Shown: positions 4,669 through 31,706 of the stretch, piece after piece
Layout: each line of letters starts with the position of its first letter
How positions within the stretch are numbered: position 1 is the first letter of the stretch
Assembly: GCF_045120835.1 (NCBI RefSeq)
Contig: NZ_JBGVFE010000064.1
Span: forward strand, 9,131 to 41,130
Direction: 5' to 3'
Length of the DNA: 32,000 bases
Origin: Methanobrevibacter sp.
GTDB taxonomy: Archaea; Methanobacteriota; Methanobacteria; Methanobacteriales; Methanobacteriaceae
The notes under the pieces: generated by a model
Told to the model about the DNA's origin: nothing
The model's input: the letters and a program-made list of their open reading frames with translations, nothing else
Database searches by the model: none
Position numbers and translations under genes: made by a program

Positions 4669-5285
4669 TGTTAGAAGAAGTCAAGCTAGCTTTCAGCGAA
4701 AATAAAATGGCCATTTATACTTCAATTGCTATTATGGCCATATCTCTAGTTTTAGGTTATTTTCTAGAACCTTATATGCACAGCTATCTGAATCCTGTTG
4801 TGGAGGATTTAACCCAAAAGGTTCAGACCGGCGTTATAACATTAACATTTCAAAGTATCTTTTTAAACAATATCAGAATAGTCTTTGCAATGTTTATTTA
4901 TGGAGGGATATTCTGTTTTTCAGCGGTGATTCTTGGATTCAACGGATTTTTTGTTGGATATTATGTTGCGACAACCGATGATTTCGTTAAGGCATTGCTC
5001 CTGATAATGCCTCACGGAATTTTTGAGTTTTCTTCATGCATAATCGCATGCGCTTCAGGTTTTGTTTTATTCAATTCCCTGGTTAAATTTCTTAAGACGT
5101 TGTTAAAACAGGAAAATAATTCAATTAGGGATAGGCTATCCATATCATTCGATACAGGTTTTGGCAAATTAAAACAGGCCTTTGTTCTGTTTGTTGTTGC
5201 TTCAATTTTAATGGCAATTGCAGGTTTCATTGAAGCTTATCTGACACTGCCGATTGCAGAATTCATATATCCATTTTTGAGTTAA
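4668..5285 (+). CDS. SpoIIM-like (DUF95) integral membrane protein
   Basis: Contains several hydrophobic helices and an MPHGIFEFSSCIIACASG motif typical of the stage II sporulation protein M family. The start overlaps the trpS stop (TAATG), which suggests translational coupling. Confidence 0.7.
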   Translation: MLEEVKLAFSENKMAIYTSIAIMAISLVLGYFLEPYMHSYLNPVVEDLTQKVQTGVITLTFQSIFLNNIRIVFAMFIYGGIFCFSAVILGFNGFFVGYYVATTDDFVKALLLIMPHGIFEFSSCIIACASGFVLFNSLVKFLKTLLKQENNSIRDRLSISFDTGFGKLKQAFVLFVVASILMAIAGFIEAYLTLPIAEFIYPFLS

Positions 5286-5329
5286 ATTTTATATAGATAT
5301 ACTTGACAAAATATATATAGTGATTTTTT

Positions 5330-6526
5330 ATGATTAGATGTGTTTCATGTGGAGAAGAATATGATGACGATGAAGTAATCTACACTTGTAAAAAGTGCGG
5401 ATCAGTTCTTGAACTCGTCAATGAAATAGACGTTTCAAAAGACATTTTTGACGGTAGAAGAGATAATTTATGGAAATTTAAAGAATGCATTCCAGTGGAT
5501 GAATCTAAAATCGTTTCACTTGATGAAGGTGGAACTCCATTCTGCAAATGTGATAAGCTGGGAAAAGAGCTTGGAGTAAACTTATACGTTAAGGTTGAAG
5601 GTTCCAACCCAACCGGAAGTTTCAAAGACAGAGGAATGACTGTCGGTATGACAAAAGCAATGGAATTGGGAGTGGACACTGTAGGATGTGCTTCAACTGG
5701 AAACACTTCCGCATCACTTTCAGCTTATGCTGCACGTGCAGGCCTTCGATGCATCGTATTTTTACCTTCAGGAAAGGTTGCACTTGGAAAATTGGCCCAG
5801 GCAATGTTCCATGGTGCTGAAGTAATGTCTATAAATGGAAACTTTGATGAGGCTCTTGAAGCCATGACTGCTCTTGCATTGGAAAAACATCTTTACTTAC
5901 TAAATTCAATCAATCCTTACAGGTTGGAAGGACAAAAGACAATAGGATATGAAATCGTTCGTGATTTGGGTTGGCAGGCTCCTGACAGGATTGTCTTGCC
6001 TGTCGGAAATGCAGGTAATATTTCAGCCATCTGGAAAGGTGTTAAAGAATTTTATGATGCGGGATTCATTAAGGATTTGCCAATGATGACTGGTATTCAG
6101 GCGGAAGGTGCATGTCCTGTTACAAATGCATTTAAGAAAGGAGATAAAAGGGTTGTGCCTGTTGAGAATCCAGAAACAATTGCAACCGCTATACGTATTG
6201 GTGCTCCGGTTAGTGATATAAAAGCTTTAAATGCTATTTATGATTCGAACGGTTATTCTGAAACAGTAACTGATGAGGAAATCCTTGATGCACAAAAATT
6301 GCTCGCAAGAACTGAGGGCATTGGTGTTGAACCAGCTTCAGCAGCTTCTATTGCAGGTCTTAAAAAACTTGTTGACGAAGGCGTGATTGATAAAGGTGAA
6401 ACAATTACCTGTGTTGTAACTGGACATTTGCTTAAAGATCCTAACACTGCTATTGATGCATGTACTCAACCTACTGAGGTTGATGCAGATATAGACACTT
6501 TAAGAGAGATTTTAATGAACAAATAA
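5330..6526 (+). CDS. thrC: Threonine synthase
   Basis: Has an N-terminal Cys4 ribbon (CVSCG...CKKCG) and the PLP-Lys motif GSFKDRG, followed by GCASTGNTSASL and VGNAGNISA. Confidence 0.92.
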   Translation: MIRCVSCGEEYDDDEVIYTCKKCGSVLELVNEIDVSKDIFDGRRDNLWKFKECIPVDESKIVSLDEGGTPFCKCDKLGKELGVNLYVKVEGSNPTGSFKDRGMTVGMTKAMELGVDTVGCASTGNTSASLSAYAARAGLRCIVFLPSGKVALGKLAQAMFHGAEVMSINGNFDEALEAMTALALEKHLYLLNSINPYRLEGQKTIGYEIVRDLGWQAPDRIVLPVGNAGNISAIWKGVKEFYDAGFIKDLPMMTGIQAEGACPVTNAFKKGDKRVVPVENPETIATAIRIGAPVSDIKALNAIYDSNGYSETVTDEEILDAQKLLARTEGIGVEPASAASIAGLKKLVDEGVIDKGETITCVVTGHLLKDPNTAIDACTQPTEVDADIDTLREILMNK

Positions 6527-20314: not shown

Positions 20315-20354
20315 TTTTTTTAAAAATAGAGGAATAAGAGTTTCAACTCTTATT
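20315..20354. terminator. Bidirectional terminator between convergent genes
   Basis: T7 then A5 (20315-20327) is followed by a perfect 9-bp hairpin AATAAGAGT/ACTCTTATT (20333-20354, 4-nt loop). The hairpin overlaps the stop of the minus-strand gene. Confidence 0.45.
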
Positions 20355-20922
20355 CGTTTTCAGATTCAGAAAATGTTTCCTGTTTAAGGGCATGCCTTTT
20401 TGTGGAAAGTATTTCCATGCAGGCAAATGCGAATCCGGTCACTACAAAGGTTAAATGAAGAATCACTCTCCAAAATTCAGTGGTAGGATCAATTGACGGA
20501 GCATTTAAAAAGTCCTGCAACAATTCAATTAGGGAAATTGCCACAACAGAACCGATGATTTTAAGTTTGAGTCCTGAAAAGTCTAAATGACCCATCCATG
20601 ATGGTCTGTCAACATGTTCTTCGGCAACGCCAATTTTTGATATGAAATTTTCATAACCTGAAAAAGCAACGATTAAAACCAAATTGGCAACCAGTGTCAA
20701 GTCCAATAGTTCCAAAACACGCATTATCCATTCATTATAGGTCAATGTTTGCATAACAGAAACAAAATCTGCCACTTCGAATACAAATCTGATTAAAATC
20801 AGTATCAGAACAAAAATTAGTAGGAAGTACATTGGGGATAATAACCAACGGCTTACAAAAAGGATTTTCTCATTATAATTTTCGATTTTATCCAATATGT
20901 CATTAAGTGAAATTTTTCTCAC
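20350..20922 (-). CDS. UPF0114 / YqhA-family membrane protein
   Basis: Carries the family signature ILFVSRWLLSPMYFLLIFVL near the N-terminus and 3-4 hydrophobic helices. The product is 190 aa. Confidence 0.75.
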   Translation of the reverse strand: MRKISLNDILDKIENYNEKILFVSRWLLSPMYFLLIFVLILILIRFVFEVADFVSVMQTLTYNEWIMRVLELLDLTLVANLVLIVAFSGYENFISKIGVAEEHVDRPSWMGHLDFSGLKLKIIGSVVAISLIELLQDFLNAPSIDPTTEFWRVILHLTFVVTGFAFACMEILSTKRHALKQETFSESENE

Positions 20923-21154: not shown

Positions 21155-21949
21155 ATGAATGATTTAAAAACAGTGATTTTAGATGCCTATGATTCAGATA
21201 TGTTATCTATTAAATTGGCTGCGATAAACAATAAAGTCAGATTTTCGATATTGGAAATTTTAAGAGATTTTGAAAAGATAAATAAGGCCGAGGATGGTTC
21301 ATTTAAAAAGGAACCATTATATTCTCGTGAAATCAATTTAATACTTTTAAATAACTACAATATAAATATCACTACTCAAATGTTGGGTCAACACTTCAAA
21401 CAGCTTGTTGAAGCGGATCTGGTTGAAGAGGTTGTTGTAAAAAAAGAGGTGCCCAATAAAATCGGTCGCAGAAGTGTTAAGGCATATGTATTAAAGGAAT
21501 GTGCCTTTGAAAGTCTGTTTTTGGATGTCAGTTTCCTGTCTGATGAGCTCCTTACGTTTTTTGATTTATACAAATCAAATCAAAGATTTTCTGATGGTGA
21601 GCATTGTGTTTTAACTATTTTCAACGGCGTTGACAAAGGTAAAACATTTAAGGTTCACAAACAGGAAAAGGTTTTAATTGGAAGAAAAGCTAATTTCAAT
21701 GCTAATGACTTGTCTTCATCTACTATACTTTTAGACAATAGCTATTCAACGGTTTCAAATGTTTCCAAACCCCATTTGAAATTATTCTTTAAGGATGATG
21801 GATGGTATATTTTGGATAGCGGAAGCACTAATGGAACATACATTGGAGATATAAAGGTTCCAACTGGAGTCGAAACAAAACTTAAGGCAAATTCATTCTT
21901 AAAATTATCTAAAGGTAATGGTGGAGCGGTTATTTATTGTTCATTTTAA
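21155..21949 (+). CDS. Winged-helix (ArsR-like) DNA-binding domain fused to a C-terminal FHA (phospho-Thr-binding) domain
   Basis: The wHTH segment reads NNKVRFSILEILRD...QMLGQHFKQLVEADLV...GRRSVKAYVL. The FHA signature residues are IGR, S-x-x-H (VSKPHLKL) and DSGSTNGTYIGD (about 21602-21946). Confidence 0.8.
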   Translation: MNDLKTVILDAYDSDMLSIKLAAINNKVRFSILEILRDFEKINKAEDGSFKKEPLYSREINLILLNNYNINITTQMLGQHFKQLVEADLVEEVVVKKEVPNKIGRRSVKAYVLKECAFESLFLDVSFLSDELLTFFDLYKSNQRFSDGEHCVLTIFNGVDKGKTFKVHKQEKVLIGRKANFNANDLSSSTILLDNSYSTVSNVSKPHLKLFFKDDGWYILDSGSTNGTYIGDIKVPTGVETKLKANSFLKLSKGNGGAVIYCSF

Positions 21950-21980: not shown

Positions 21981-24900
21981 GTGGACTTTGATGATGCAAA
22001 ATACTTAATTGAAGAATTTTTCAATGGTAAGTTCGAAGTTAAAAAATTTCTTGGAGAAGGGTCATTTGCAAAGGTGTATTTGGTAAACCATAACTACTTA
22101 GATATCTTAATGGCCATGAAAATCATCAAAGAGCCCTTAAGTGCCGCCACCAACAAAAAAGATATTTTTCGAGAAGTTACTCTAGCTTGTCAATTGAGGC
22201 ATGAGAACATAATCAGCATTTATGATGCTGCAGAGATATCCGATTTTGAAGATGGGAAAAGTCATGCTTATTTTGTAATGGAATATGTTTCTGGAGGGGA
22301 TTTGGAGAGATATTTAAATTCATTCAGCGAGAACAACATATTCATGCCAATAGAACGGTGTTTGGATATAATCAGACAAATTTTAAGTGGTCTGAATACT
22401 TTGCATTCTGCAAATCCTCCTATTGTTCATCGGGATTTGAAACCGCATAATGTTTTGGTTAGTTTTAATGATTTTGGGAATATAATTATTAAGATTTCAG
22501 ATTTTGGATTTGCAAAGGAGATTACAACCAAAGTTTCCGACATTGATATTGCAGGTACAAGACCTTATATGGCTCCGGAACTATTTGAAAAGTCGGTGTC
22601 AACGAGAAGTGACATATATGCTGTTGGAGTCATTTTCTATCAGTTGTTGACAAATCATTTCCCCTATGATGTTGAAGGATATTCCAATTCCGAGTTAATG
22701 GATTTAAAACCATGGAGCAAAGAGCTAAAGGCTCCAAGCCACTATAATGGCCAGGTATTTGACGAGTTGGATAAAATTGTGTTGAAGTGCCTTGATGCCA
22801 ATCCATCTAACAGATACGGGGATGCAGATGACCTTTTGAGGGATGTTCAAAAAGCGATGGATAAATATAAATCTAAACGGATCGTATCTGAAATCAGCCT
22901 CGACAATGACTATCATGATGATTATCATGAATATATTGTCAATGATTCAATAAAAAAAGCTTTTCAACTCGCTAAATGTGAGAATAGGCTTGGTGAAGCT
23001 ATTGAAATATTGGAAAATGAGGTATTGGCTGATTATGACATTCGAAAGTGCTATTCCGAAACTCTTAGAATATGGAAATCCAAAAGGCCCGATTTGAAAT
23101 TAATTTCTAAGGCATTCACTATCAATCTTAAGGGAAATAATTATGACCTGTCATGCAGCTTACTAAAAGAGGCAATTGCTTACAATCCTTCCATTGGAAA
23201 TAAATATCGTCATTATTTAGATTTGTGGGAAATTTTCATTGATTTGCAAAAGCATGGAAGTTTATTTAAGGCAGTCGTTTTGCTTGAAAACTTAATGGAT
23301 TCAAGCAGTGAAATAAAACAGATTTATAAAGATATAATTCCAGTACTTAAAACATATTCGGTTGAAGACATTGTCCCGGAGGCAATTCGTCTGGTCAATT
23401 CAAACAATTTGTCTGCCGGAGCAAATCTGATGGAATTTGCGGTTGTTCTTAATTCCCAAATCAGGGACAGATATGCATACGGAATGTCATTGTGGAAGCA
23501 GAATATGAAGATGCATTTCAGGGCTTCAAATGAAATCAAGGAAAATACTATTGATTATGCAATCGATTTAGGAACAACGGATTCATTAATATCTTATTTT
23601 AATAAGGGAAAACCCATAATTATTAAAAATCATGTTACTGGAGATCTGTTTACTCCTTCTGCTGTTTTAATAGAGGGAGATGATGTGGAAGTGGGTGCAA
23701 ATGCAAAAGAGGCCATCTTGGAAAACAATCCCAATGCGGTATGTGAATTTAAACATGAAATGGGATTTTCCATTCCATTCAATTTTGAAAAATCATCAAG
23801 GGTAATGTTTCCCGAAGACCTTTCGGCAGAGGTTTTAAAAGATTTGAGAGTTTCGGTTCATGATGAGATGGGAATAAATATTGAACATGCTGTAATCTGT
23901 GTTCCTGCAAATTCAAATCCTATTAAAACAAGGGCGGTTAATGAGGCAGCTAAACTTGCAGGATTCAAATCACATGGGCTTATTTTAGAGCCTATTGCAG
24001 TTTCTCTTGCATATGATCTTAAAAAGAAAAATGGAATATGGATGATTTATGATTTGGGTGGGGGAACATTCAATGTTACTTTAATCCGGGAAAATGATGG
24101 CGAAATCGAAAAGGTTGCAACCGATGGGCTGGAAAATCTGGGAGGAAATGCGTTTGACTGGAGGATTGTAAACGACTTATTTTCGCCCAAAATTGCTCAT
24201 GATTTAAGTTTGGATGATTTAAGAAGGGACAATACAAAATACCTGAAAATATTCGCTCGACTAAAGAATGCTGCCGAAATTGCCAAAAAAGATTTGACAA
24301 ATCATGATGAAGCGAAGATAGAAATTGGGGATATTTTTGAAGGATATGATTTCAGATACACTTTAACCAGAGAGGAATTTGCACACATCATTGAACCGCT
24401 GATTAAATGCACTTTCAAGTTATCAAGAAATCTTCTCGATAAAAACATGCTGTCTGAAGGTGATATTGACAGGATCATTCTTGTTGGAGGCTCATCACTA
24501 AGTCCAGTTGTCCAGGACATGATTTTGAAAGAATTTGATATTGAAATTGAATCCAGCATAAATCCATTAACAGTCGTATCAAAAGGTGCGGCCATTTATG
24601 CGGGAAGCCTTGAAAAACCTCCAGTGGAAGTCCGAAGAAAACCTCTGTCCGTACTTATAAATAATGAAAATGGTGAAATTAAAGGCAGGGTATTTTCACA
24701 AGATTTATCATATTCCTTTTTGGGTTATTCCATAGAATTTATAAACCGTGAATCCTCATTAAAATTTCCTTTAAAAATTGATGGTTCATTCAAATTTAAA
24801 TCTGGTAAAAATGATTATGAAATAAATGTTTACAATGAAGATGAAATGGTCAAACTTGATGAAAAATCACCTCATGTATTAAAGGGGCAGAATATTTTCA

Positions 24901-25493
24901 TACCTTACTTCAATGAGTATTTTTCCCTGAAAGATGAATTAATTTTCAATGATTTGATTAGCCGCTACAATAATGCTCTTAAGGATATTGAATATCTGTG
25001 CGAATTCTTGAAATTTAATGAAACTGAACTTCAGCGGTATATTGAAAGTTTACTTGAAATAGCTAGAAGAGACAGTATCGCTTTAAATCATGCTGATATT
25101 TATATTGGCCATTTAGAAAGTACTGTAAACGATGCAAAAAGGAATTTGAGATTTTCGATTCTCATGGAAAATGTTTTAAATAAAATAGAACTCATTGAAG
25201 ATGAGGCACTGTTTGAAATCGGAAGCGTTGCAGAAATTGAAGAAAGCAAAAATTTGGAGGAATTGGAAGGATTTTACCGGGATATTGTTGAAAAATATGT
25301 CTTGTTAAATAAAAATGAGGTTATAATTGAATGCTTTTACAACTTAAAGTATGGGGGCATATTTACTAATAATAAAAAACATTTTGAGGAGTTGGTGGAT
25401 AAAGCGCATGATGCCATAAGCAATCATGATTACAGGAGTCTATTTAATATTGTAAATTTATTATATGAGCTGGACGAACGCACGGATAAATAA
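21981..25493 (+). CDS. Fusion protein: Hanks-type Ser/Thr protein kinase (N-terminal), helical linker, Hsp70/DnaK-like ATPase with a divergent substrate-binding-like C-terminus
   Basis: A GTG start lies 4 nt after GGTGG. No in-frame ATG occurs before the kinase Lys. Kinase motifs (about 22029-22850) are GEGSFAKVY, AMKII, HRDLKPHNVL, DFGFAKE and YMAPE. Hsp70 NBD motifs (about 23547-24608) are IDLGTTDS, ILEPIAVSLAY, YDLGGGTFNVTLI, ILVGGSSLSPVV and NPLTVVSKGAAIYA. Confidence 0.88.
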   Translation: MDFDDAKYLIEEFFNGKFEVKKFLGEGSFAKVYLVNHNYLDILMAMKIIKEPLSAATNKKDIFREVTLACQLRHENIISIYDAAEISDFEDGKSHAYFVMEYVSGGDLERYLNSFSENNIFMPIERCLDIIRQILSGLNTLHSANPPIVHRDLKPHNVLVSFNDFGNIIIKISDFGFAKEITTKVSDIDIAGTRPYMAPELFEKSVSTRSDIYAVGVIFYQLLTNHFPYDVEGYSNSELMDLKPWSKELKAPSHYNGQVFDELDKIVLKCLDANPSNRYGDADDLLRDVQKAMDKYKSKRIVSEISLDNDYHDDYHEYIVNDSIKKAFQLAKCENRLGEAIEILENEVLADYDIRKCYSETLRIWKSKRPDLKLISKAFTINLKGNNYDLSCSLLKEAIAYNPSIGNKYRHYLDLWEIFIDLQKHGSLFKAVVLLENLMDSSSEIKQIYKDIIPVLKTYSVEDIVPEAIRLVNSNNLSAGANLMEFAVVLNSQIRDRYAYGMSLWKQNMKMHFRASNEIKENTIDYAIDLGTTDSLISYFNKGKPIIIKNHVTGDLFTPSAVLIEGDDVEVGANAKEAILENNPNAVCEFKHEMGFSIPFNFEKSSRVMFPEDLSAEVLKDLRVSVHDEMGINIEHAVICVPANSNPIKTRAVNEAAKLAGFKSHGLILEPIAVSLAYDLKKKNGIWMIYDLGGGTFNVTLIRENDGEIEKVATDGLENLGGNAFDWRIVNDLFSPKIAHDLSLDDLRRDNTKYLKIFARLKNAAEIAKKDLTNHDEAKIEIGDIFEGYDFRYTLTREEFAHIIEPLIKCTFKLSRNLLDKNMLSEGDIDRIILVGGSSLSPVVQDMILKEFDIEIESSINPLTVVSKGAAIYAGSLEKPPVEVRRKPLSVLINNENGEIKGRVFSQDLSYSFLGYSIEFINRESSLKFPLKIDGSFKFKSGKNDYEINVYNEDEMVKLDEKSPHVLKGQNIFIPYFNEYFSLKDELIFNDLISRYNNALKDIEYLCEFLKFNETELQRYIESLLEIARRDSIALNHADIYIGHLESTVNDAKRNLRFSILMENVLNKIELIEDEALFEIGSVAEIEESKNLEELEGFYRDIVEKYVLLNKNEVIIECFYNLKYGGIFTNNKKHFEELVDKAHDAISNHDYRSLFNIVNLLYELDERTDK

Positions 25494-25551: not shown

Positions 25552-25683
25552 ATGAAAAAGCAAAATTCAGTAAATGGGACAGTAATACTGAAAAAAGATT
25601 CTTCAGATGGTTTTTTGGATTTTAACTATCCTGGAGAGCTTTCTGAAGTGTTGAGAATACTAAATAAAATAATGAATGAATAG
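25552..25683 (+). CDS. Candidate 43-aa micro-protein (not in the supplied ORF track)
   Basis: An ATG lies 7 nt after GGTGG. Translation gives MKKQNSVNGTVILKKDSSDGFLDFNYPGELSEVLRILNKIMNE. It is on the same strand, between the kinase-Hsp70 and HD-RyR genes. I recognise no homology. Confidence 0.35.
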   Translation: MKKQNSVNGTVILKKDSSDGFLDFNYPGELSEVLRILNKIMNE

Positions 25684-25796: not shown

Positions 25797-28052
25797 ATGG
25801 GTGACAGTAATTTAAAGAAATATATTGATGATTTTTTTGATAATTTGGAGTTATATGATGATAAACACAATGGTCATTATTATAAAGGGCTTTTAAAAGC
25901 AGGAATTGATGTATTTTTAGAAACTGAAAATACATATAATGCATATGAAATCTATCAGACATTTTTCATGATTTATCAAATCACTGCGGAAAATAAATCC
26001 GATAAGGTAACCGAAAACAGTGCAGTTAACGAGCCGAACACATTATTGGACCTGGTTAAGATAATGAAAAAATATGAGGAAAATACTGGGGACTTAATTG
26101 AAAAGCAAAGGGATCACTTCATTCATTCAGTTAATGTATTTCTGTTAGGTTTGGCGATTTACTCTCAAAATAAAAGTTACCGTGATGCATTTGAGACATA
26201 TATACTCAATACTCCTTATAAAAAATATTACAGAATCAATAAAAAATTGTCTCACGAAGAGTTCTTGTACCGCTGGGGTGTGGCGTCACTCTTCCATGAT
26301 ATAGGATATCCCGTTGAAATTATCGGAAAGCAACTTAACAAATTCATAAATGATGGGGTAAAGTCCATTTCAAGTTCATACAGTGCAGATACTGCAATAG
26401 ACTTTAAGGATTTCAATGAATTCAATACCATTATGAAGATAGAGCCCGATTTTGCAGATAATTATACTGCACAATATCCTAAGGCAAAATTCCTGAATTT
26501 ATTTAAACCTACAGACATTATGGCCCATAAGATAGCTACGGATTTTTCAGGCGTTGACGTCAACATGGTGGTAAAGCATTTGGATGATTTTGTAAACATC
26601 ATGGGAGACAACGGATTTATCGACCATGGATTTTTCTCAGCGATACTCGTTTTGAATTCCTATGGTTATTTAATTCAAAAATATGCCAAAAACCATGATT
26701 TCTTCTTTTATCCTATTGTCGACAGTGCCACAGCAATCTTATTGCATAACTACTACAGAAATGTATTGCAAAAAGCACCTTTCAACTTAAAAGCGCTTCA
26801 TCCATTACAAAGTCCCCTTGCATACTTGCTCATATTATGTGACGAACTTCAGGAATGGAACAGACAGCCTTTCGGCATTAAGGACAAAAAAAGAAGCCAC
26901 GTAAATGACTTGAAGCTTGTGGTCGATGATTCCAAACTTGAAGTTGACTACATTGTCAAAAGCGGTTCGATGGGTCTTGGATTTTCCGAAGATAAACAGG
27001 AACTGCTTAAAAATGTTTTGTCAATTCCAAGTATTTTCGAAAGGAATTTCCTGATTTATACTGATGTAAAGCAGGACAGCAACATCATGAGAGAAATCGT
27101 TAAATCAGAAATCCAGTCCCCTAACACCTTGCTTAGAAATGTTGAAAAGTTGGCGCTTCAGATTCACGAGCAGTATATTGAAACCACTAAAGTTCAATTT
27201 GAGGCAAAAAAAGCCAAAGGCGAGGTTGATGAGGATGCCATAAGGGATTTCGAAGAGAAGACCAAACCGTTTAATGAGTTGTCTTCACATCTCAAGCTAG
27301 CAAATATCCGTCAGGCAAGGTCAATTCCTAAAAAGCTAAACATGATTGGCTGTGAGCTTGCAAGCAAATCAGATAAACGTGAGGCAATAACCGAATTTTC
27401 CCAAGAGGAAGTAATTGACTTGGCTATTTTCGAACATGATGAATGGTGTGAGGAAAAAATAGGTCAGGGTTGGACCTATGGGGAAGTGAGAGATGATTCC
27501 CAATTGATACATGACTGTCTGGTGCCTTGGGATGATTTGACACCTGAAATCCAGCAGTATGATATCGATCCTGTTAAAAACATCCCGGGTCTTGTTGAGT
27601 CTATAGGACTGAAAATCGTCAGAAGTAAAATCAGAATGCTTACCGTTGAGATGCATAAGTTCTACCAATCAAAAGAGGAAGGAACCAAGGACTTTGATGA
27701 TTTGCCTGAGTATATTAAATATTCAAACTACAAGCAGGCGGATTTCTTGGTTAAAATATTGGCCGAACTTGGATATGATGTGGTTGACGTTCAGTCACCC
27801 GGTGAGGCAATTGAATATTTCGATGAGGATTCCCTTGAATATCTGGCCAAAAGAGAACATAATGCATGGTATAAGCTTAAAGTCAATTTAGGTTGGAAAT
27901 TTGGTTCTGTTCGTGATGATGCCAAAAAATTAAATCCTAATGTCGTTGAATGGGAAGAACTGGACATAACAAAAAGGGATTCTAACAAAAGAACATTTAG
28001 AAATCTTCCGCAAATGTGCAACAATGTCGATTTAAAAATTGTCAAGAGCTAA
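25797..28052 (+). CDS. HD-domain (metal-dependent phosphohydrolase superfamily) protein with C-terminal RyR-like repeats, paralogue 1
   Basis: The HD motif set (about 26094-26876) is QRDHFIHSVNV, LFHDIGYP, IDHGFFSA, LLHNYY and LILCDELQEW. RyR-like repeats read LAIFEHDEWCEEKIGQGWTYGEVRDD..LVPWDDL (about 27399-27620) and LAKREHNAWYKLKVNLGWKFGSVRDD..VVEWEEL (about 27822-28043). Each is preceded by an LP..K.SN..QA....KL...G half-repeat. Confidence 0.8.
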   Translation: MGDSNLKKYIDDFFDNLELYDDKHNGHYYKGLLKAGIDVFLETENTYNAYEIYQTFFMIYQITAENKSDKVTENSAVNEPNTLLDLVKIMKKYEENTGDLIEKQRDHFIHSVNVFLLGLAIYSQNKSYRDAFETYILNTPYKKYYRINKKLSHEEFLYRWGVASLFHDIGYPVEIIGKQLNKFINDGVKSISSSYSADTAIDFKDFNEFNTIMKIEPDFADNYTAQYPKAKFLNLFKPTDIMAHKIATDFSGVDVNMVVKHLDDFVNIMGDNGFIDHGFFSAILVLNSYGYLIQKYAKNHDFFFYPIVDSATAILLHNYYRNVLQKAPFNLKALHPLQSPLAYLLILCDELQEWNRQPFGIKDKKRSHVNDLKLVVDDSKLEVDYIVKSGSMGLGFSEDKQELLKNVLSIPSIFERNFLIYTDVKQDSNIMREIVKSEIQSPNTLLRNVEKLALQIHEQYIETTKVQFEAKKAKGEVDEDAIRDFEEKTKPFNELSSHLKLANIRQARSIPKKLNMIGCELASKSDKREAITEFSQEEVIDLAIFEHDEWCEEKIGQGWTYGEVRDDSQLIHDCLVPWDDLTPEIQQYDIDPVKNIPGLVESIGLKIVRSKIRMLTVEMHKFYQSKEEGTKDFDDLPEYIKYSNYKQADFLVKILAELGYDVVDVQSPGEAIEYFDEDSLEYLAKREHNAWYKLKVNLGWKFGSVRDDAKKLNPNVVEWEELDITKRDSNKRTFRNLPQMCNNVDLKIVKS

Positions 28053-28074
28053 TCGACATTTTTATATTTTTTTC
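28024..28074 (+). terminator. Hairpin spanning the stop codon plus oligo-T after paralogue 1
   Basis: An 8-bp stem ATGTCGAT/ATCGACAT (28024-28031/28052-28059) is followed by TTTTATATTTTTTT. A second 8-bp palindrome TTATGTAA/TTACATAA lies at 28080-28103. Confidence 0.35.
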
Positions 28075-28168
28075 ACCAGTTATGTAAAATATTTATTACA
28101 TAATATGTTAACCTTATTTAATGGTGTTGATATATCTATAATTAATATGGATTATAGGTGTTATTAAT

Positions 28169-30661
28169 ATGGCTCAGGAAAGCACACAGGTTGAAAATCG
28201 AAATCGGGATTCTAATTTAAGTCATTATATTACTAATTTTTTTGACATGGTTGAATTGTATGATGATAAAATCGAATTTAAGGATAATCATGGAAAAACC
28301 CATTTTCATGATTATAAAGGTCTTTTAAAAGCATCAATTGATGTTTTTTTAGAATATGAATCATCATATACAGCTTATGAAGTTTATGAAACATTTTTAA
28401 TGATTTATCAAATCACTCCAGAGGACAAAAGTGAAGTTGATGAAAACAGTCCTAAAATTCTCATAAGTGAACCAAATAATCTTCTTGATTTGGTCAATAT
28501 CATGAGAAAATATGAAAAAAACACAGGCGATTTAATAGACAGGCAAAGGGATCATTTCATTCACTCCGTCAATGTATTCATTTTGGGTTTGGCGATTTAT
28601 GCTCAAAATGAAAATTATCGCAGATTCTTTAAAAACTATATTGTGGGCAATAAAAACTATACAAAATATTTCAGGGATAAAAAGAACAACAACGAATTTT
28701 CCCATGAGGAATTTTTATATCGTTGGGGAATTGCAGCTCTGTTCCATGATATAGGTTATCCATTTGAGATTATTGGAAAACAATTAAATAAGGTTATTGA
28801 TGAGACCGTTGAATCTATTTCCGTCAGTTATGATGTTAAGGCCAATATTGACTTTAGGGATTTCAATGAATTCAACTCCATTGTTAAATACTATCCATAT
28901 GATTATGCAGATAACTTTAGAAACACCTATGGACGTACAAAGATTCTGGATCTGTTCAAACCTACAGACATTATGGCTCATAAGATTGCTTTGGACTTTA
29001 ATCTTAATGATAATGAATTCAAACAGTTGGTTAAACATCTGAATGGATTTGTAAAAGACATGACTGCCAATGGCTTTATAGACCACGGATACTTCTCAGC
29101 CATTTTGTTATTGAATTCATATGGTAAACTGATTCAAAAGTATGCTAATAAAAATAATGATTTCTTCTTCTATCCTATCGTAGACAGTGCAACGGCTATT
29201 TTGCTACATAACTATTACAATAAAACTTTGCAGGATGAAGACAAACCATTCAATCTTGGAAAATTGGATCCGGAAGATTCCCCTATTTCATACCTTCTGA
29301 TATTATGTGATGAACTTCAGGAGTGGAACAGGCGTCCTTACGGTATTTTGGATAAACAGAAAAATCATGTAAATGATTTTGAAGTTGAAATATCCGACAA
29401 ATATTTCAATGTAACCTACATTTTAAAAAATGGGTCTATGGGTCTTGGCTTTGAAGAGGATAAGGAAAAGTTCATTAAAGATGTTTTAAATATTAGGAAA
29501 GTATTTTCCAGAAGTTTAACAATTAATCCCGAAGTTGTTTTAGATGATGTTCAAAGAGAAATCCTGATGGATAATATTCAATCTCCAGATGTGCTTTTGA
29601 GAAATATAGAGCGATTGGCTATAGAAGTTAATGAACAATACAATCAATCTCTCAAACAACAGCTAGAACAGGCCAAAAAGGATAATGATGATGAAAATAT
29701 CAAAAAATATGAGGAAAAGATAGCTCGGGCATGTGATTTTGAAGATTTGCCTGCAAGCTTAAAAATGTCAAATATCCGTCAGGCAAAGTCCATTCCAAAA
29801 AAATTGAGCATGATTGGTTGTGAAATAGCTCATAAAACTGAAGAGGAAATGGCGGATACAAAAGATTGGGAAGTTAAAGTAAAGGAATTTGAAGACAAAA
29901 TTGAAGACAATAGGCCTCCTATTGAAAAAGAAGAGGAATCCTTTGAGGATTTCAAAAAAAGGCAGGAACTGCTTGAACGGGATGGCAAGATTGTAAGGGT
30001 CATAAGATTTAGTTCAGACGATATTGATGATTTGGCCATTTATGAACATAGGGACTGGTGCAGGGAAAGAAGGGGTACCGGTTGGATTCATGATGAAGAC
30101 AATGATGACAGAATCAATAAAGTCAATCCAAATCTGGTTAAATGGGAAGAGCTTGATGAACCGACTAAACAGTTTGATAGGGATGCCATCAGTAACATTC
30201 CAAAACTTTTGGATAAAATTGGCCTAAAAGTTATCAGAAGCCGCCTCAGGTCATTGACTTATAAGATGAATCAGTTTTATGAGACAGGTAAATTGGACAG
30301 CAATTCCAGTGGTGAAGAAGATTTTAAGAGTTTGGATAAACATATTCAGTTCTCTAATTTAAAACAGGCAGACCACTTAGTTAAAATATTAAAACATAAG
30401 GGATATGAATTGGTTTCTATAAATGATTCCGGCGATCCTATTGATGGTTTTTCAAAGGATGAAATAAATCACTTTGCTAAAATGATGCATGAAAGTTGGT
30501 ATAAACTTAAACTCAATTTGGACCAGACTACAAGTAAAAATTTTGTTGAATGGGATAAGCTTAGGGAAGAGGTTAAGGAGGATAATAGGAATACCTTCAG
30601 ATATCTTCCTGAAATGTGTAAGGATGAGTATGTTGGTTTGAAAATCGTTAAGAACGAATAG
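28169..30661 (+). CDS. HD-domain protein with C-terminal RyR-like repeats, paralogue 2 (with a charged insertion and a degenerate last repeat)
   Basis: It is collinear with paralogue 1 through QRDHFIHSVNVFILGLAIY, LFHDIGYPFE, IDHGYFSAILLLNSYG, FFFYPIVDSATAILLHNYY and LLILCDELQEWNRRP. It also shares MSNIRQAKSIPKKLSMIGCE and LAIYEHRDWCRERRGTGW. Confidence 0.8.
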   Translation: MAQESTQVENRNRDSNLSHYITNFFDMVELYDDKIEFKDNHGKTHFHDYKGLLKASIDVFLEYESSYTAYEVYETFLMIYQITPEDKSEVDENSPKILISEPNNLLDLVNIMRKYEKNTGDLIDRQRDHFIHSVNVFILGLAIYAQNENYRRFFKNYIVGNKNYTKYFRDKKNNNEFSHEEFLYRWGIAALFHDIGYPFEIIGKQLNKVIDETVESISVSYDVKANIDFRDFNEFNSIVKYYPYDYADNFRNTYGRTKILDLFKPTDIMAHKIALDFNLNDNEFKQLVKHLNGFVKDMTANGFIDHGYFSAILLLNSYGKLIQKYANKNNDFFFYPIVDSATAILLHNYYNKTLQDEDKPFNLGKLDPEDSPISYLLILCDELQEWNRRPYGILDKQKNHVNDFEVEISDKYFNVTYILKNGSMGLGFEEDKEKFIKDVLNIRKVFSRSLTINPEVVLDDVQREILMDNIQSPDVLLRNIERLAIEVNEQYNQSLKQQLEQAKKDNDDENIKKYEEKIARACDFEDLPASLKMSNIRQAKSIPKKLSMIGCEIAHKTEEEMADTKDWEVKVKEFEDKIEDNRPPIEKEEESFEDFKKRQELLERDGKIVRVIRFSSDDIDDLAIYEHRDWCRERRGTGWIHDEDNDDRINKVNPNLVKWEELDEPTKQFDRDAISNIPKLLDKIGLKVIRSRLRSLTYKMNQFYETGKLDSNSSGEEDFKSLDKHIQFSNLKQADHLVKILKHKGYELVSINDSGDPIDGFSKDEINHFAKMMHESWYKLKLNLDQTTSKNFVEWDKLREEVKEDNRNTFRYLPEMCKDEYVGLKIVKNE

Positions 30662-30899
30662 TTTACTTATTTGTTCTTCCTATTTTTTTAACCGAATAGC
30701 TCAACATCAATTAGTTGGGATTTAATGTGACTCGGCATCAATTATTTTAACACTTACCATCTCCACTTCTATTTTAATAATTCATATTTTCATTTTAGAC
30801 ACGTTGCTTATTTCAATCACAATGTTGTGCATGATGCATGTAGTCAAATCTTAAAAATTTAAAAAGAATGCATGATAAATAGATACATAAGTGATTATT

Positions 30900-31706
30900 A
30901 TGTCTAAAGAATGGGAAGATATTAAGGTCAACAGACGAAAAGGGGATAAGGCAGTTTTTGAATCTCCATTGGTTCAATCAATATATGATAGAATTGGATA
31001 TTTGCGAGAAGAGACTACCGATATACTAAGAGAAATGGATTCAACTGAATTCAAACAGCGCATTGACGAATTTGATATTGAGGAGTTTGGTGAAAATGCA
31101 ATTGAGCAGTTTTCAGATATTGCATATGATTTGTCAAGCTTCAAGGATGAGGTCATTTCTAGAGAAGATGTCCCGGACATTTTGAAAAAAACTTCAAAAG
31201 ATGCAAAAGTTGCTTTAAATCGTGATGAAATGTATTTAAGACAAGCAAAAAGAAAATTGGATAGATTTGATGAGGGGTTGGCAACTAACGGGTATGATTT
31301 AAATACTCGTGTTATTGGTCTTTGCGACAAGTCAATTTATTTAAATTCTGAAAATCACGAGGCATATTATCTAAAAGGGTTGGCGCTTATCAACTTAAAA
31401 AATTATGACGAAGCAATTGAAGAATTAATCAACTGTTTGGCTTTAAATGAAGAATATATTGATGCAAGATTGGCAATTGCAAAGGCAAATAGATTAAACA
31501 AGGATTATGAGGATGCAATAAGTGTATATGATTCTGTTTTAAGAATGGATGACGATTCATTTGAGGCCTTCAAAGGTAAAGCCTATACCTATTATGATTG
31601 GGAGAAATATGGAGAAGCCAGTAATTTCTTCAAAAAAGCAAATTCAATAGAATTTTTGGATGAGGAATCCCAAAAAATGTGGGATGAGTGTTTAGGATTT
31701 GATTAA
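30900..31706 (+). CDS. TPR-repeat protein
   Basis: C-terminal 34-aa repeats read AYYLKGLALINLKNYDEAIEELINCLALN, ARLAIAKANRLNKDYEDAISVYDSVLRMD and AFKGKAYTYYDWEKYGEASNFFKKA. I prefer the ATG at 30900 over the GTG at 30891. Confidence 0.75.
   Translation: MSKEWEDIKVNRRKGDKAVFESPLVQSIYDRIGYLREETTDILREMDSTEFKQRIDEFDIEEFGENAIEQFSDIAYDLSSFKDEVISREDVPDILKKTSKDAKVALNRDEMYLRQAKRKLDRFDEGLATNGYDLNTRVIGLCDKSIYLNSENHEAYYLKGLALINLKNYDEAIEELINCLALNEEYIDARLAIAKANRLNKDYEDAISVYDSVLRMDDDSFEAFKGKAYTYYDWEKYGEASNFFKKANSIEFLDEESQKMWDECLGFD

Follow-up and report, generated by a model that had tools for sequence, protein, structure and literature searches.

We analysed a stretch of 32,000 nucleotides from Methanobrevibacter sp. 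(assembly GCF_045120835.1, contig NZ_JBGVFE010000064.1, positions 9,131-41,130, forward strand), referred to here as the window, in which two neighbouring genes, A and B, encode paralogous proteins that join an N-terminal domain resembling HD phosphohydrolases (termed HD-like) to two units of the ryanodine-receptor (RyR) type. We tentatively propose that binding of a TIR-derived ADP-ribose product by the RyR module controls the HD-like enzyme, and that the two proteins would thus act as a sensor-effector of Thoeris-like signalling. The proposal is made because the RyR fold binds ADP-ribose-type and adenine ligands, because the binding pocket is intact, because TIR and DUF4062 partners and fusions occur in the family, and because the family is cellular. 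It is built on domain identities, residue conservation, gene neighbourhoods and fusions that are observed directly. The genes are located as follows:

25797..28052, + strand: paralogue A, 751 amino acids (aa), HD-like domain and two RyR units (open reading frame; Pfam RyR, E 1.8e-30; RefSeq WP_405295017.1)
28169..30661, + strand: paralogue B, 830 aa, architecture as in A (open reading frame; Pfam RyR, E 7.6e-12; RefSeq WP_405295019.1)

These coordinates agree with an initial annotation made from the DNA letters, which had described two collinear tandem genes of 751 and 830 aa. BLASTP aligned the proteins from end to end with 51% identity and 68% positives (E=0), and the near-identical blocks singled out in that annotation, FFFYPIVDSATAILLHNYY, LLILCDELQEWNR and SNIRQA.SIPKKL.MIGCE, were all found. 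Each gene is preceded by a TATA-like element and a ribosome-binding site (AAAGGTG for A, AGGTG for B) and followed on its 3' side by an oligo-T run. The exact sequences of both proteins are present in RefSeq under the name "RyR domain-containing protein [Methanobrevibacter sp.]"; their RyR annotation is therefore already public. Their N-terminal domain carries no annotation.

The RyR identity of the C-terminal half, which the initial annotation had recognised from its motifs, is backed by the Pfam hidden Markov model, by sequence search of the PDB and by fold comparison. With a gathering threshold of 27.4 bits, PF02026 matched A at residues 541-607 (105.4 bits, E 1.8e-30) and B at residues 619-688 (45.8 bits, E 7.6e-12), detecting just one of the two units of B. 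A phmmer search of the PDB returned Repeat12 and Repeat34 of RyR1-3 and the Bacteroides protein 3NRT. The AlphaFold model of A residues 434-751 (predicted local distance difference test, pLDDT, 90.9; predicted TM-score, pTM, 0.80) contains two equivalent units. Foldseek matched this model to Repeat12 of human RyR3 and RyR1 with probability 1.0 (E 2e-8 to 1e-6, 240-260 columns), the matches including complexes with AMP-PCP or ADP and dantrolene. As a whole, the two-unit model superposes poorly on Repeat12 (TM-score 0.3-0.5, root-mean-square deviation ~19 Å).

The internal duplication of this half, also noted initially, is upheld by the two equivalent units of the model and by a second BLAST segment, which pairs A 492-611 with B 719-830. 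The arrangement proposed for it, an A-B-A-B series of half-repeats and full repeats, was not retained: each A+B pair forms a single unit of ~120 residues, modelled as helix, strand, helix, loop, two helices and strand. The supposed half-repeat, LP..LK.SN..QA..IP.KL..IG, corresponds to the helix and strand with which each unit opens, and EH..W begins the second helix. Because unrelated bacterial RyR proteins have the same type of LP..LK.SN motif ahead of the RyR core, it belongs to the prokaryotic RyR module and is no separate repeat. The four units of the pair are:

27270..27626, + strand: A RyR unit 1, aa 492-610, with the full tetrad H547, W550, H572 and D589 (Pfam; 3NRT, RyR1 and RyR3 alignments; model; Foldseek)
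27693..28049, + strand: A RyR unit 2, aa 633-751, with H688 and W691 kept and N713 and N730 at positions three and four (PDB matches to RyR2 repeats, query 680-731)
29738..30238, + strand: B RyR unit 1, aa 524-690, with H627 and W630 kept and a residue other than His at the third position (Pfam stretch 619-688)
30323..30658, + strand: B RyR unit 2, aa 719-830, degenerate, with H774 and W777 kept and the GWxYG loop deleted (second BLAST segment; missed by Pfam)

Two phage proteins give these residues a meaning. RyDEP, an RyR-domain protein of a mycobacteriophage, is a glycosidase that opens the cyclic ADP-ribose (cADPR) isomers 2'cADPR and 3'cADPR; other phage homologues act as sponges that soak up these molecules with nanomolar affinity, most of the tested homologues with the same residues bind without cleaving, and animal Repeat12 shares the ligand residues H75, W78, H100 and D117 (PMC13232231). 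RyR Tad, which a Pectobacterium phage encodes, uses H129/W132, K147/H154 and K170/D171 to sequester 3'cADPR, 2'cADPR and cADPR (10.64898/2026.06.04.730250). With these two 2026 preprints on phage RyR domains and cyclic ADP-ribose isomers, the initial annotation's remark that prokaryotic RyR domains have no known function no longer holds. The spacing in A unit 1, H-x2-W-x21-H-x16-D, is identical to that of H75/W78/H100/D117 in RyDEP and of H129/W132/H154/D171 in RyR Tad.

In B unit 1 the Asp is retained but shifted by one residue through a one-residue insertion, and a Glu/Lys-rich insertion of ~60 aa (aa 552-612, 29822-30004), which A lacks, separates the first helix and strand from the EHxxW helix. 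The loss of the GWxYG loop from B unit 2 recurs in the B-type genes of loci L008, L012, L014, L015, L016 and L037; because it is common to B-type orthologues of other species, it is an old and maintained state. Nearly every homologue retains the first His, the Trp, the GW loop and the D.D motif in its unit 1, and these features are almost universal in the bacterial homologues with one RyR unit, which have Ser or Thr at the third position. On this comparison of the pocket residues of all four units, each protein probably has one working pocket, in unit 1. Unit 2 may then serve as the built-in partner that single-unit RyR proteins obtain by dimerising.

The N-terminal domain is all-alpha in its AlphaFold2 model (25797-27146; pLDDT 87.4, pTM 0.89) and spans the following regions:

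25797..27086, + strand: A HD-like domain, aa 1-430 (conserved residues and AlphaFold2 model; Pfam HD below threshold), with motifs RDHFIHS at 105-111, FHDIGYP at 166-172, IDHG at 275-278, LLHNYY at 315-320 and LCDELQEWNR at 347-356
28169..29578, + strand: B HD-like domain, aa 1-470, with the five motifs intact at 127-133, 192-198, 304-307, 345-350 and 379-388

The HD motifs seen initially are thus present in both proteins as these five. In alignments of 26-65 diverse sequences, R105, D106, H107, H110, R159, W160, H167, D168, Y171, P172, D276, H277, H317, D349 and R356 were invariant or nearly so; H110, D168, H277 and D349 were invariant in all family alignments, and H167 and H317 were either invariant or at least 90% conserved. 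The conserved residues follow the collinear H...HD...H...H...D order of HD phosphohydrolases and lie in local signatures typical of HD proteins, namely HS..V, LFHDIG.P and a hydrophobic helix carrying the last Asp.

The formal tests of HD membership were weak. Pfam HD (PF01966; gathering threshold 22 bits) scored below threshold in both A (14.1 bits) and B (12.6 bits). It weakly matched 4 of 26 family members (best E 0.017) and was the sole family to recur among the weak matches. On a consensus from which the ~85-residue insertion between motifs II and III had been trimmed it reached 20 bits (E 8.8e-4, HMM positions 2-93), still below the cut-off. A weak match of the same consensus to Lysine_decarbox (LOG/SLOG) crosses the splice point and was dismissed as an artefact. 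Searching the PDB with a profile of the N-terminal family alignment at E<=10 yielded just three spurious complex-I matches (E>0.2), and Foldseek of the model against PDB and BFVD gave nothing at E<=0.001, the best matches being zinc transporters with a TM-score of ~0.1. The one suggestive Foldseek match was to E. coli exopolyphosphatase PPX (2flo, probability 0.54), which we take to be a protein with an HD-like domain. No SAMHD1/dGTPase-type or Cas3-type chain occurred among the Foldseek matches listed, and the PDB profile search returned none; a fold of either type, with which the initial annotation had suggested comparison, is therefore unsupported. The otherwise all-alpha domain includes a small beta-alpha-beta subdomain (aa 365-425), and the last ~60 residues of the modelled region form a small beta-beta-alpha-beta subdomain with weak resemblance to the MamM/CDF C-terminal domain. 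As for the HD assignment made initially, the conserved H...HD...H...H...D residues support it, whereas the Pfam score and the structure searches do not. From its conserved residues the domain is probably a very divergent member of the HD superfamily and a metal-dependent phosphohydrolase; because the formal tests were weak, we call it HD-like and assign no subfamily.

A HMMER search with residues 1-450 (representatives at 50% identity, E<=1e-3) defined a family of 1,160 cluster representatives, and more than 1,000 close relatives of A and B were found in Methanobrevibacter and Methanosphaera. The domain occurs in a standalone form of ~405 aa (Syntrophomonadaceae, Methanofastidiosa, Methanobacterium), with one RyR unit in proteins of ~580 aa (Clostridia, Chloroflexota), with two RyR units in proteins of ~750 aa (Methanobrevibacter, Methanosphaera), and in longer forms with TIR domains. 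The latter include TIR-TIR-HD-like-RyR fusions (P0139, P0142, P0149, P0158 and the B-orthologue of locus L010) and HD-like-RyR-TIR fusions (P0362 and L075). No relative was found among the 2.9 million contigs of IMG/VR, which argues against an anti-defence role, and phage records gave two weak metagenomic matches only. The family is cellular and essentially absent from viruses. Between orthologues, the proportion of nonsynonymous differences (pN, 0.08-0.3) was far below that of synonymous differences (pS, 0.56-0.84, saturated) in each domain of both proteins, which indicates that both copies are under purifying selection. For A against B, the comparison envisaged initially, the ratio of nonsynonymous to synonymous rates was not estimable because synonymous sites are saturated (pS=0.78).

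The bacterial relatives are linked to TIR domains through their gene neighbourhoods and fusions. We sampled 110 immediate neighbours at 40 loci and counted, for each Pfam family, the neighbours with a match: TIR_2 (18 neighbours), DUF4062 and TIR (10 each), NACHT and AAA_22 (7 each), and WD40, LRR_5, TrkA_N and ThsB_TIR (6 each). With a TIR model built for this analysis, a TIR domain was detected in or beside the family gene at 19 of the 40 loci, two of these being C-terminal fusions. DUF4062 has been reported as a TIR-like NADase that produces ADP-ribose. Three arrangements recur: an HD-like-RyR gene whose stop codon coincides with, or lies only a few bases from, the start of a TIR-LRR gene behind it; a DUF4062-NACHT-WD40 protein of 1,400 aa upstream of the family gene; and, in Anaerolineales, a gene for a two-transmembrane (2TM)-TrkA_N-RyR protein after HD-like-RyR, with TIR genes alongside.

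The Anaerolineales genes (L047:2096-3874, L048:2484-4247 and L051:6937-8775) encode a protein whose N-terminal 2TM segment has a pore-like loop and is followed by a TrkA_N (RCK) domain and, C-terminally, by an RyR module; TIR genes lie nearby in L051 and in the sister loci L045 and L054. The protein is a putative RyR-regulated channel, a prokaryotic parallel to ryanodine receptors. At another locus (L003:8001-11933), a standalone HD-like protein of 403 aa is convergent to a CBASS-like operon with a SMODS nucleotidyltransferase and a Cap17-like gene.

Scanning a single genome for each GTDB species gave at least 558 loci of the family, and 76 of them were retrieved for analysis. Among the methanogens, the Methanobrevibacter cluster is modular: an input module is followed, often, by a calcineurin-like metallophosphoesterase of 255 aa and then by one or two HD-like-RyR genes, and many clusters add two paralogous multi-pass membrane proteins and sometimes a TPR protein. 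At 15 or more Methanobrevibacter loci the input module consists of an FHA protein and a Ser/Thr kinase-Hsp70 fusion; in L022, L023 and L060 it consists of two standalone TIR proteins of 295 aa, and in L028 of one such protein. At three further loci TIR is fused to the HD-like-RyR protein (the 1070-aa B-orthologue of L010, with two TIR domains, and the proteins of L042 and L043), and in total a TIR gene or fusion was found at 7 of 35 Methanobrevibacter loci. In Methanosphaera (L001), FHA, kinase, TPR and UPF0114 genes lie near the pair and a TIR-DUF285 gene ~10 kb away; TPR genes near the pair also occur at L008/L009, L020, L029, L033 and L034.

The window has the form FHA, kinase-Hsp70, A, B, TPR, as in L012, and the kinase module that the initial annotation placed next to the pair proved to be the kinase-Hsp70 fusion gene upstream of A:

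21155..21949, + strand: FHA-domain protein, 264 aa, with which the recurrent input module begins (Pfam FHA, 5.5e-9)
21981..25493, + strand: fusion of a Ser/Thr kinase and an Hsp70 nucleotide-binding domain, 1170 aa (Pkinase 8.9e-55, HSP70 5.2e-67; WP_405295013.1)
30891..31706, + strand: TPR-repeat protein, 271 aa, downstream of B (Pfam TPR families)

A tblastn search of the window for the metallophosphoesterase, the pair of membrane proteins and the N-terminal extension known from sister clusters found none of them. In several species the pair lies beside aIF2, eIF2-gamma, RpoE and ribosomal protein genes in conserved synteny, and in another species it directly follows the same housekeeping genes without an input module.

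On these grounds an adenine-containing ligand would bind the intact pocket of RyR unit 1 and switch the HD-like enzyme on or off. We infer the nature of the ligand from the phage RyR data and from the conservation of the pocket; it would most likely be an ADP-ribose-derived product of TIR or TIR-like NADases, either cyclic ADP-ribose isomers or ADP-ribose. How the HD-like enzyme is controlled and what it acts on are likewise inferences. A and B would form the cytoplasmic sensor-effector arm of a Thoeris-like system, and in this Methanobrevibacter the FHA, kinase-Hsp70 and TPR proteins would probably supply or modulate the input in place of the TIR genes of sister species. The initial annotation had spoken of a regulated effector, which we judge a reasonable reading.

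Several results weigh against a role of this kind. Pfam scans detected no TIR or DUF4062 gene in the 32-kb window, and scans of A and B with NCBIfam and PADLOC gave no match. RyR does not appear in those parts of the text and supplements of a 2025 systematic survey of TIR systems that were available. Where RyDEP has His as its third pocket residue, the bacterial homologues linked to TIR carry Ser or Thr; HD membership lies below every formal threshold, and the model of the domain is without a structural neighbour. The conserved chromosomal position looks more like that of a vertically inherited function than like a mobile defence island. Given that Repeat12 of human RyR3 binds plain ATP or ADP, an everyday adenine nucleotide could be the ligand. 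It is because of this last point, the lack of TIR in the window and the hypothetical activity and substrate of the HD-like domain that we hold the sensor-effector proposal tentatively.

The same parts could also work as an off-switch. The RyR unit of A, in which H547 and D589 correspond to the catalytic dyad of RyDEP, would open cyclic ADP-ribose isomers or capture ADP-ribose, and the HD-like domain would cleave the pyrophosphate; the protein would then be a host analogue of ring nucleases, or a block on the rebuilding of NAD+ from ADP-ribose by phages. Taking these variants together, we consider such a role unlikely. RyDEP shows that an RyR fold can be a cADPR glycosidase, with His and Asp at positions that are kept in A unit 1, but most tested homologues with the same residues bind only. 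DUF4062 and many of the TIR neighbours can be complete NADase effectors alone, whereas the two-gene TIR-LRR operons hold no other effector. The presence of TIR, HD-like and RyR domains in one chain fits substrate channelling better than signal amplification, and the metallophosphoesterase gene found directly upstream in most Methanobrevibacter clusters belongs to the superfamily that includes ADPRibase-Mn; as to the HD-like step, we know of no HD enzyme that acts on ADP-ribose.

A housekeeping role without any part in immunity appears quite unlikely. In that case the RyR tandem would sense the ATP/ADP energy charge and adjust the activity of an HD-like phosphohydrolase that serves nucleotide or second-messenger metabolism, with the FHA and kinase-Hsp70 proteins exerting control through Ser/Thr phosphorylation. 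Crystal structures of RyR3 Repeat12 hold ATP analogues or ADP, and energy-charge sensing has been proposed for animal Repeat12. The synteny with translation and transcription genes, the presence of the pair in many Methanobrevibacter species and in Methanosphaera, the strong purifying selection and the window's lack of TIR would all fit such a role. However, orthologous clusters of sister species exchange the FHA and kinase genes for TIR genes or gain TIR fusions, and in bacteria the relatives show a strong association with TIR, DUF4062-NACHT, LRR and SLATT-type genes. That the N-terminal domain is instead a new all-alpha fold outside the HD superfamily, with a convergent or structural-metal His/Asp cluster, and the protein a scaffold or sponge acting through its RyR units, is very unlikely: although the confident model has no HD structure as a neighbour in PDB or BFVD, the PDB profile search gave no real match, and hhalign against a three-sequence canonical HD profile (CCA-enzyme type) aligned just 17 columns around LFHDIGxP (probability 65%), the motif order and signatures (HS..V, L.HDIG.P, Asp in a hydrophobic helix) are of HD type, Pfam HD is collinear from the first His to the third motif, the weak PPX match is to a protein that we take to be HD-like, and Foldseek is weak on all-alpha folds with large insertions.

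The window has a GC content of ~34% and is a low-GC archaeal chromosome segment. Pfam scans identified the archaeal housekeeping genes eIF2-gamma, Rpb7/RpoE, DUF359 and argininosuccinate lyase, the first three of which bear out the archaeal host named initially. The pair has a gene for a UPF0114 membrane protein in its vicinity both here (20350-20922, - strand) and in Methanosphaera sp. BMS (L001:12305-12922). The kinase-Hsp70 fusion has a further tail of ~280 aa, and its RefSeq name is merely "Hsp70 family protein". Within the gap of 303 bp between this gene and A lies an open reading frame of 43 aa, MKKQNSVNGTVILKKDSSDGFLDFNYPGELSEVLRILNKIMNE (25552-25683, + strand), with a GGTGG ribosome-binding site; in sister species this place is taken by the metallophosphoesterase gene, of which no remnant was detectable here.

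Other genes recur in the methanogen clusters. The two membrane-protein paralogues, of 259 and 266 aa with 7-8 transmembrane segments and the motif SNAFTSNGYxVLG, stand at the cluster end in L015 (10946-12522) and also in L016, L027, L029-L032 and L036; they have no Pfam match and are absent from the window. A domain of ~270 aa without a family assignment is fused to the N-terminus of the L010 A-orthologue (L010:5188-6027), is also part of the 1020-aa proteins P0033, P0037 and P0060, and forms a separate gene in L031 and L032. It has no similarity to the TIR region of the L010 B-orthologue. At the archaeal locus L033, a DUF4231 (SLATT-type) gene (5006-5980) stops 3 bases before the HD-like-RyR start.

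The RyR annotation itself is already known; the HD-like family and its gene linkages appear to be new. Neither the HD-like family, nor its linkage to TIR and DUF4062, nor the alternation of TIR with FHA/kinase-Hsp70 input was found in Pfam, NCBIfam, PADLOC, the PDB or the searchable literature, and the literature search returned no paper linking cellular RyR domains to TIR, HD or archaea. The analysis flags a domain of ~430 residues without a Pfam, NCBIfam or PDB representative that has more than 1,100 family representatives. RyR domains had long been a fold without a function outside animal calcium channels, and the family described here would be the host counterpart to the phage versions. 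If the sensor-effector proposal is true, TIR signalling gains a new sensor domain and a new effector enzyme and reaches gut methanogens, and the long-debated connection between cADPR and ryanodine receptors in animals acquires a testable evolutionary route. A wider generalisation, which we regard as doubtful, would cast cellular RyR domains, archaeal and bacterial, as the natural receptors for ADP-ribose signals made by TIR proteins, and HD-like-RyR proteins as a new type of Thoeris effector with a wide distribution; phages would have stolen their RyR proteins from host sensors, and the animal link between cADPR and ryanodine receptors would be an inheritance from prokaryotic immunity.

Among known proteins, the HD phosphohydrolases (PF01966; SAMHD1/dGTPase, Cas3 HD, HD-GYP, PgpH) share with A and B the H...HD...H...H...D order and the motifs RDHxxHSxxV, LFHDIGYP and LCDELQ, whereas A and B differ by scoring below the Pfam threshold and by the ~85-residue insertion between motifs II and III. 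The "putative ryanodine receptor" of Bacteroides thetaiotaomicron (3NRT, 4N05, 6UAG) is ~45% identical over the RyR core and has an identical H/W/H/D set, but it is a standalone homodimer of 103 aa without an enzyme domain or the extra N-terminal helix and strand. Repeat12 of eukaryotic RyR1-3 resembles the archaeal module in placing two RyR repeats in one chain, gives the best fold and sequence matches, and conserves the adenine-nucleotide pocket residues; the archaeal proteins differ in that no channel is present, in the additional N-terminal helix and strand of each unit, and in a modelled unit orientation that superposes poorly.

In Thoeris (ThsB with ThsA and ThsC-ThsL), the SLOG domain of ThsA controls SIR2. 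The resemblance lies in the relatives of A and B, where a TIR gene, often TIR-LRR, forms a tight two-gene operon with a protein that is both small-molecule-binding and enzyme-like; the differences are an RyR sensor instead of SLOG, Macro and others, an unannotated HD-like enzyme, and the absence of TIR from the window. With RyDEP and RyR Tad, finally, A and B share PF02026, the H/W/H/D spacing of A unit 1, and a four-helix unit with an extra N-terminal helix. The units are paired as a homodimer in the phage proteins and in tandem within A and B. RyDEP and RyR Tad are small, phage-encoded, single-unit dimers with anti-Thoeris activity, whereas A and B are cellular proteins of 750-830 aa fused to an HD-like domain of 430 aa; and where the phage proteins oppose TIR defence, the relatives of A and B are partnered with TIR genes.

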